Assembly (NCBI RefSeq): GCF_053078305.1
Contig: NZ_CP166879.1
DNA: 64,000 nucleotides
Reading direction: 5' to 3' (one strand)
Below, one piece after another: positions 58,484 through 58,680 of this stretch. The notes beneath the pieces are model-generated. The model saw only the letters and a list, made by a program, of their open reading frames with translations. It searched no databases and was not told the origin of the DNA. Each line of letters opens with the position of its first letter. The stretch's first letter is position 1. Both the position numbers and the translations under genes were made by a program.

Positions 58484-58680
58484 TCTTGCCTGATGCGACG
58501 CTGGCGCGTCTTATCAGGCCTACGCAGGGGTAGAACCGTAGGTCGGATAAGGCGTTCACGCCGCATCCGACAGCCGTTGCCTGATGCGACGCTGGTGCGT
58601 CTTATCAGGCCTACGCAGGGGTAGAACCGTAGGTCGGATAAGGCGTTTACGCCGCATCCGACACGCATTGTCCGATGCCG
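58484..58680. repeat. REP/BIME cluster with tandemly duplicated ~90-bp unit between dedD and cvpA
   Basis: GCCTGATGCGACGCTGG(C/T)GCGTCTTATCAGGCCTACGCAGGGGTAGAACCGTAGGTCGGATAAGGCGTT(C/T)ACGCCGCATCCGACA occurs twice in tandem. Confidence 0.85.

Follow-up and report, generated by a model that had tools for sequence, protein, structure and literature searches.

A two-unit BIME-2 array of variable copy number between dedD and cvpA in Escherichia coli

In the Escherichia coli genome of NCBI RefSeq assembly GCF_053078305.1, the spacer between dedD and cvpA contains two nearly identical palindromic units lying head to tail. The question raised by this locus is what the duplication represents: a recent event in a single genome, an error of assembly, a small RNA gene, the work of a transposase, or one state of an array that differs among strains. 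We analysed a 64,000 nt stretch of contig NZ_CP166879.1 (the window, to whose positions all coordinates refer) and find that the element is a two-unit array of the bacterial interspersed mosaic element class BIME-2, built of Z2 and inverted Y repetitive extragenic palindromic (REP) sequences, and thus of an ordinary and already described kind. The best overall explanation, and one in which we have considerable confidence, is a polymorphic BIME-2 array that is probably older than E. coli and whose roles in the 3' untranslated region (3'UTR) of dedD are assigned by analogy.

Tandem Repeats Finder (TRF) reports 58486-58663 as a single array with a period of 91, 2.0 copies, 97% matches, no indels and a score of 342, which is the highest of all tandem repeats in the window. 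A repeat finder likewise aligns two 91 nt copies, head to tail and in register, with 95% identity and a spacing of 91 nt (Table 1). An earlier interpretation made from the letters alone (the sequence-only reading) had proposed a tandem duplication of a REP-containing unit of about 90 bp between dedD and cvpA, and self-comparison bears this out: the register and spacing of the copies exclude a non-tandem arrangement, the true unit is 91 nt, and the 85 nt core string that had been given agrees exactly with unit positions 3-87, its two C/T positions included. Its placement between the two genes agrees with the open reading frame (ORF) list and with the annotation of matching genomes. The array does lie within the proposed span of 58484-58680, but that span is too wide by 2 nt on the left and by 13 nt on the right, where the excess covers the flanking sequence TTGTCCGATGCC, which resembles the first 12 nt of a unit and so gives the borders of the array a short direct repeat. 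Between the two units, five of the 91 positions differ (20, 72, 88, 89 and 91). The two internal differences are both C/T and both fall in hairpin loops, that of Z2 at position 20 and that of Y at position 72, and the others are in the last four bases, which are GCCG in unit 1 and CGCA in unit 2. An array of this kind cannot have arisen by chance.

Comparison of REP consensus sequences with the window (blastn-short) identifies four full-length REPs in the array, two of Z2 type on the + strand and two of Y type on the - strand. Within each unit the Z2 and Y REPs are inversely oriented and separated by a short linker of 14 nt, GCAGGGGTAGAACC, and there is no long L linker. In the classification of Gilson, Bachellier and Hofnung, in the summary of it given by Ton-Hoang et al. 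2012 (PMC3333891), BIME-2 elements consist of z2 and y REPs in tandem copies with short linkers, the copies at a locus being well conserved and their number varying among strains. The tandem array is assigned to BIME-2 because its REPs are of the Z2 and Y types in inverted orientation, which gives a class to the BIME-like cluster of the sequence-only reading. It is extragenic, lying between the dedD stop at 58478 and the cvpA start at 58828. The RefSeq annotation of K-12 MG1655 at dedD-cvpA contains coding sequence (CDS) features only and no named REP feature, and three ORFs of 43, 56 and 108 aa that run across the array in the window were set aside as by-products of the palindromic repeat.

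Variation at this locus is seen when the dedD-cvpA spacer is compared among E. coli genomes, since its length changes in steps of exactly 91 nt with the units all in register. From the dedD stop to the cvpA start it measures 167 nt with no unit (EC21Z-144), 258 nt with one (K-12), 349 nt with two (the window and O157:H7 LSU61), 440 nt with three (CD306), 531 nt with four (F1 E4) and 804 nt with seven (ERP001). The strain-to-strain variation in copy number anticipated by the sequence-only reading is thus present at this same locus, with 0, 1, 2, 3, 4 or 7 units in other E. coli genomes, and dedD-cvpA is a variable-number tandem repeat (VNTR).

Frequencies were drawn from cumulative counts and from samples. 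Of 5425 complete E. coli genomes, 3794, 3827, 4422 and 5001 cover at least 80% of queries with one, two, three and four units, respectively. A search with the repeat-free 0-unit allele, in which the spans of the joined flanks were taken in two systematic samples down the ranking, yielded 111 distinct genomes, 77 of them with one unit, 16 with three, 11 with four, three with none, one with seven and three with odd alleles; none of the 111 has exactly two. The one-unit allele, that of K-12, is found in about 70% of complete E. coli genomes, three units in about 11-14% and four in about 10-11%, and the other 8% or so in the cumulative counts have no unit (about 2-3%), at least five units, or a disrupted array. 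Two units are present in about 0.6% (about 33 genomes), an approximate figure taken as the difference of cumulative counts from a search that joins pieces of one-unit genomes into full coverage, and the window therefore carries one of the rarer versions. At least 11 complete genomes appear to have two units, of which LSU61, Xuzhou21, O145:H28 RM9872, Res13-Sevr-PER07-33 and A20 were checked directly and several more by way of alignment spans.

Disrupted and partly deleted arrays are also represented. TUM1586 (locus L130) has one unit with a 23 nt internal deletion running from the 3' arm of Z2 across the linker into the start of the Y REP, and EC-10 (L135) has two units with a 20 nt deletion in the second, as does genome H198 judging from an identical span of 581 nt. 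In E. coli B25FEP (NZ_CM177971.1; L128:1590-3160) the IS110-family element IS621 is located inside the Z2 REP of a one-unit allele, at ...ATCAGGCCT/ACGCAGG... (here and below a slash marks a junction or cut), that is, ...CTTATCAGGCCT/IS621/ACGCAGGGG. This position presumably corresponds to the REP-derived target described for IS621. Split loci of this kind are found in about 10 of the 5425 genomes.

A broader relationship is seen in other species, whose loci were reached by scanning for the promoter pattern TACGCAAACGTTTTC-N7-GTTAGAATGCG that lies upstream of cvpA. At the same site E. albertii and E. whittamii have two units each, Escherichia sp. E1V33 has seven, the divergent strain E69 has two and the divergent 'E. 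coli' SCPM-O-B-8794 has one. The same place holds one short Z-like palindrome, beginning TTGCCTGATG, in Salmonella enterica subsp. arizonae, and Y-like REPs in Citrobacter species. The internal junction ACAGCCG/TTGCC is present in every multi-unit allele of all the species compared and is missing from the single-unit alleles, whose terminal junction varies by lineage (ACACGCA, ACAATGG, ACAATGA, ACATGTA or ACACTCA). Because one unit cannot remake the shared internal junction by simple duplication, a multi-unit array is probably ancestral to the genus, and the one-unit alleles would be contractions; that of K-12 is thus probably a contracted allele and not the norm of the genus. By the same token, the presence of multi-unit arrays with this junction in E. 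albertii, E. whittamii and Escherichia sp. E1V33 makes it improbable that the array in the window was duplicated recently in this genome.

The empty allele appears to be a loss. It reads TACGGTC-TTGCC-CGATGCC, the whole array having gone from between the short direct repeats TTGCCTGATGC and TTGCCCGATGC, TTGCC(T/C)GATGC. Because its flanks are identical in five sampled genomes (EC21Z-144, locus L003:480-646, and those numbered H31, H32, H147 and H148) and the nearest relatives of these genomes are filled, with one, three or four units, we take the 0-unit allele to be one derived deletion in one clone. The window shares 96.5-99.5% identity with E. coli loci, as compared to 91-93% with the other Escherichia species that were compared, and belongs to E. 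coli sensu stricto. Its closest local relatives are of the O157:H7 lineage; for window positions 44000-64000 the best match is 98.7% over 20 kb (LSU61 and Xuzhou21, among about 5,425 complete E. coli genomes), and its own lineage appears to have no close representative in that collection.

The composition of the units bears on how they are gained and lost. O157:H7 strains typically have four units, u1 to u4, and Xuzhou21 has u1 and u4. The first of the two LSU61 units combines the 5' marker of u1 (or u2) with the 3' part of u3, and the second is u4; similarly, the K-12 unit has the 5' part of window unit 1 and the 3' part of window unit 2. The exchange point in both LSU61 and K-12 lies within the unit, between positions 20 and 72. 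The two-unit alleles of O145:H28, Res13-Sevr-PER07-33 and A20 are each again of a different composition, and two-unit alleles therefore arose several times. Change in unit number is fairly quick, with two and four units confirmed among O157:H7-type genomes and three probable. The chimeric units fit events driven by the homology of the 91-bp repeats, be they unequal crossing-over, slippage or gene conversion. In the explanation that we prefer, neighbouring units undergo homology-driven unequal exchange or slip in replication, the array growing or shrinking by whole units of 91 bp, and the two-unit allele of the window is one state of this variable array, uncommon in E. coli.

Features of the unit also invite an explanation in which TnpA_REP, the REP-associated tyrosine transposase (RAYT), adds and removes units by cutting single-stranded DNA at TGCC/TGAT and rejoining it, which would make the array an active non-autonomous mobile element whose unoccupied target is seen in the empty allele. 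Every unit starts TTGCC/TGATG, which includes the 'iREP I' cleavage site TGCC/TGAT of the E. coli enzyme, the Y REP begins GTAGG and so carries the 5' GTAG needed for TnpA_REP binding, and in the empty allele, TACGGTCTTGCC/CGATGCC, TGCC is exactly at the junction. Cleavage at TGCC/TGAT in z1/z2 REPs has been mapped in vitro, and TnpA_REP catalyses strand exchange between such sites (PMC3333891). However, the same site is filled in every Escherichia species examined, with REP-like palindromes there in Salmonella and Citrobacter, and an empty site as the ancestral state, which would be evidence of insertion, is not seen, all Escherichia outgroups being occupied; the empty allele is limited to one E. 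coli clone among filled relatives, as befits a loss and not a virgin target. Moreover, the exchange points are within units and not at their boundary, the right border is CC/C whereas cleavage needs CC/T, and a 91-bp perfect tandem repeat suffices for RecA-dependent or slippage events. Cutting and rejoining by RAYT is thus the less likely route for unit changes, and we consider an active mobile element at this locus to be distinctly unlikely. As for an assembly artefact or a chance likeness, short-read assemblers may miscount tandem repeats near the read length, but the internal markers of the two units recur in complete genomes (unit 1 of LSU61 is identical and its unit 2 is one base off), the two-unit genomes noted above are complete, and alleles of 0-7 units occur in exact 91 nt steps over thousands of complete genomes, which leaves this explanation with next to no probability.

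A further alternative is that the junction between the units is a small RNA (sRNA) gene resembling naRNA4, its RNA being processed out of the dedD 3'UTR, binding HU and bridging DNA cruciforms, and that it is new in duplicated arrays and absent from single-unit K-12. The Rfam naRNA4 model (RF02564) matches 58541-58611 on the + strand over its full length with 79.5 bits against a gathering score of 59.5 (cmscan), and is the sole Rfam family at gathering score in the array region; matches above threshold occur only in alleles with at least two units, and HU binding and DNA condensation have been reported for naRNA4 of REP325 (Qian et al. 2015, PMC4550694). The alignment, though, runs end to end from the Y REP of unit 1 through the inter-unit linker into the Z2 REP of unit 2, and the number of matches above threshold follows the number of units, there being none in the empty allele (EC21Z-144), none in K-12 (best 38 bits), one in the window, two in CD306 and three in F1 E4. 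Because this is n-1 matches for n units (1-4), the match is a generic junction of any two abutting BIME-2 units and no sign of a dedicated sRNA gene. This Y-linker-Z2 junction reaches 55.5 bits on the reverse strand too, its linker (GCCGTT) falls 6 nt short of the 'l' linker of REP325, and a scan detects no promoter of its own. Furthermore, according to a 2026 preprint of the Xiao and Adhya laboratories, nucleoid compaction by REP325/naRNA4 is not measurable and HU, cruciform DNA and naRNA4 form no stable ternary complex (bioRxiv 10.64898/2026.03.23.713779). An sRNA gene at the junction is therefore, in our judgement, very improbable.

Returning to the array as a variable BIME-2, we asked how far its units keep their palindromes, using 34 distinct units from 15 alleles and considering the stems of Z2 and Y together with a small CTAC/GTAG linker helix. 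Standard pairs fill 97.8% of the stem cells, and there are four pairs with compensatory double changes as compared to 1.6 in column shuffles (four being reached in 3 of 500 shuffles); variation among the units is concentrated in loops and linkers. Because the units are related by descent, we treat this apparent hairpin constraint as supporting evidence only. In the minimum free energy fold of 58470-58740 (z-score -8.3 relative to shuffles), the two local Y hairpins of the two-unit RNA are replaced by a long-range pairing to which the first Y REP contributes its 5' arm and the second its 3' arm, and which encloses the Z2 hairpin between them. From this model, multi-unit transcripts may adopt alternative long-range structures.

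What the array does is approached through other BIMEs. REP325 has been described as stabilising the mRNA upstream of it and as acting as an attenuator, in part dependent on Rho (bioRxiv 10.64898/2026.03.23.713779), and ribosomes stall at REPs within 15 nt of a stop codon, according to the summary of Liang et al. 2015 in PMC12306157. By analogy, the transcribed hairpins at dedD-cvpA would protect the 3' end of the dedD mRNA and partly attenuate read-through towards cvpA-purF, and terminating ribosomes would perhaps be slowed, the first REP being 9 nt past the stop codon and so within the 15 nt range; the number of units may modulate all three effects. Among the roles listed by the sequence-only reading, gyrase would be the relevant partner, and binding of integration host factor (IHF) does not apply. 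Gyrase cleavage sites are over-represented in BIME-2, mainly in Y REPs and independently of transcription, and the single-unit locus in K-12 W3110 is listed in Table DS3 of that study as 'BIMEs2 2437498-2437581, 83 bp, cvpA-dedD', with two in vivo cleavage sites under rifampicin plus ciprofloxacin and one with microcin B17 (PMC6379681). For IHF there are no matches to the consensus WATCARNNNNTTR in 58479-58697, and IHF binding is a trait of BIME-1. A stronger proposal is that unit number is a heritable, lineage-specific 'dial' for dedD mRNA stability or translation termination, for read-through into cvpA-purF, an operon of purine biosynthesis, or for a local gyrase site or supercoiling barrier, the polymorphism then being functional and not neutral; we regard this as unlikely.

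Several points weigh against parts of the explanation that we prefer, that of a polymorphic array with 3'UTR roles. The K-12 element has no cleavage sites under ciprofloxacin alone and none under oxolinic acid (PMC6379681 Table DS3), and so does not rank with the strongest gyrase sites. The effects of REPs are context-dependent and mRNA half-lives are not uniformly changed (bioRxiv 10.64898/2026.03.23.713779), and the functional part of the explanation draws on the single-unit allele of K-12 and on other BIME loci. With regard to the mechanism, gene conversion instead of crossover could be the source of the unit chimeras. As for frequencies, the collection from which those of the alleles were taken is clonally biased, and the two-unit count, being the difference of two large numbers, could be somewhat higher, since two genomes with two units were found below the top rank in one 30-row sample.

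The surroundings of the array are listed in Table 1. The dedD stop codon is TAA (58476-58478), and the 9 nt spacing from it to the first REP stem is constant in every examined allele with at least one unit. At the position of the right flank Citrobacter has a related TGCC...GGCA sequence and Salmonella a weaker TGCCCGAAGAG likeness. The hairpin further downstream is almost unchanged in E. albertii, E. whittamii, Salmonella and Citrobacter, and has the features of an intrinsic terminator, with a G+C-containing stem-loop that leads into a T-run (TTTTTATT); it is likely to be the end of the folC-dedD transcript. With this putative terminator downstream of it, the array is therefore placed in the 3'UTR of dedD, upstream of the predicted end of the operon.

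Table 1. Features of the dedD-cvpA region, in window coordinates.
Feature	Position	Strand	Basis
dedD CDS (cell division protein DedD), 663 nt	57816..58478	+	ORF list, RefSeq annotation of matching genomes
9-nt spacer TACGGTCTT, dedD stop to first base of first REP stem	58479..58487	+	sequence
BIME-2 unit 1, 91 nt	58486..58576	+	find_repeats, TRF, BLAST to REP consensus
Unit 1, Z2 REP	58488-58523	+	BLAST, 100% to consensus
Unit 1, putative S-type linker	58524-58537		
Unit 1, inverted Y REP	58538-58572	-	BLAST match 58538-58571, 100%
Unit junction, Y REP + GCCGT + Z2 REP	58541..58611	+	cmscan, naRNA4 model
Inter-unit linker GCCGTT	58573-58578	+	
BIME-2 unit 2, 91 nt	58577..58667	+	find_repeats, TRF, BLAST to REP consensus
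Unit 2, Z2 REP	58579-58614	+	BLAST, 97% to consensus
Unit 2, linker	58615-58628		
Unit 2, inverted Y REP	58629-58663	-	BLAST match 58629-58662, 97%
Unit 2, terminal CGCA	58664-58667		
Right flank, TTGTCCGATGCC + small hairpin ATGCC-GCAAA-GGCAT	58668..58689	+	comparison with 0-unit allele (L003), RNA fold
Intrinsic-terminator-like hairpin, 12-bp stem, 6-nt loop, then TTTTTATT	58698..58735	+	terminator scan, RNA fold
cvpA-purF control region	58755..58787	+	pattern TACGCAAACGTTTTC-N7-GTTAGAATGCG
PurR-box-like ACGCAAACGTTTTCTT	58756-58771	+	sequence
Extended -10, TGTTAGAAT	58776-58784	+	sequence
cvpA CDS (colicin V production protein), first gene of cvpA-purF	58828..59316	+	ORF list, RefSeq annotation of matching genomes

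Between the terminator-like hairpin and cvpA is the pattern TACGCAAACGTTTTC-N7-GTTAGAATGCG, which we take to be the PurR operator and -10 element of cvpA-purF (purF regulation). It has one match each in at least 120 DNA stretches from Enterobacterales assemblies, upstream of cvpA where checked. Among the matches listed, it ranges from Escherichia to Photorhabdus, Morganella and Edwardsiella, and the dedD-side spacer upstream of it ranges from less than 50 to more than 700 nt.

Among the other repeats in the window, the sequence-only reading had pointed to three similar REP sites, two of which are true Z2/Y pairs (40153-40257 and 45600-45677); the third, at 49090-49200, is a scrambled cluster. 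At the first of these, between a fimbrial adhesin gene and smrB (convergent), 36 nt of AT-rich linker separate a Z2-type REP from an inverted Y REP; a linker of this length is reminiscent of BIME-1 or of atypical BIMEs, but it does not match the IHF consensus WATCARNNNNTTR. At 45600-45677 there is a single BIME-2-like unit (Z2, a 9 nt linker and inverted Y) between the convergent yfcL and mnmC. The scrambled cluster is in the fabB-yfcJ spacer, where a 25 nt half-REP unit, ACGCGCCAGCGTCGCATCCGACGTT, is repeated 2.3-2.8 times at 49123-49192. Within dedD itself, 58121-58168 is an imperfect 24 nt (8-codon) tandem repeat that encodes part of the Pro/Lys-rich linker of DedD. The Rfam scan of the whole window also reports IS009 (RF02111) at 17025-17223 on the + strand (218.5 bits) and a tRNA at 22854-22925 on the - strand, both unrelated to the array.

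Beyond good annotation the array matters little. BIME-2 arrays and their copy-number variation among strains have been described since the 1990s, and the dedD-cvpA locus is already known from published BIME-2/gyrase tables; a literature search for a dedD-cvpA REP found nothing relevant. A practical consequence is that an Rfam naRNA4 match where BIME-2 units adjoin should not be annotated as an sRNA gene. The natural allelic series (0, 1, 2, 3, 4 and 7 units together with the IS621-disrupted allele) could be used to relate REP number to 3'UTR function and gyrase binding.

Comparison with known systems places the array within an established class. 'Replication risk sequences' (RRS) were considered and ruled out, since the term covers two particular elements of 222 bp, located near dusC and lysO, and PMC10592627 handles BIME-2 apart from them. 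IHF-binding BIME-1 (RIB/RIP) was ruled out too, since IHF binding and the L linker are BIME-1 traits and the dedD-cvpA array has neither an L linker nor an IHF consensus match. With the REPIN/RAYT (TnpA_REP) system it shares inverted REP doublets, the 5' GTAG and TGCC/TGAT at each unit start, but differs in having no sign of recent transposition: occupancy appears to predate the species, the empty allele is apparently derived and exchange is within units. Like bacterial minisatellites and other VNTRs it is made of units joined head to tail and varies by exact unit steps from strain to strain, the O157:H7 clone included, whereas its unit is a structured pair of protein-binding palindromes from a genome-wide repeat family and not a locus-specific simple repeat. 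Closer is REP325, the six-unit Y/Z2 array between yjdM and yjdN of K-12 from which naRNA4 was defined (PMC4550694). The two arrays have the same REP types in the same order, each lies in a 3'UTR between two same-strand genes, and the dedD-cvpA junction covers the full 77 nt length of the model; the differences are the shorter Y-Z2 linker and two units here as opposed to six, and the nucleoid role proposed for REP325 is now disputed (bioRxiv 10.64898/2026.03.23.713779). From BIME-2 in general the array differs in nothing essential, although its Y REPs are of the GTCGGA...TCCGAC and not the GCCGGA...TCCGGC form. It has the alternating inverted Z2 and Y REPs, short linkers, tandem arrangement, extragenic location and strain-variable copy number of that class, and the K-12 allele of this same locus is listed as a BIME-2 with gyrase cleavage (PMC6379681 Table DS3).

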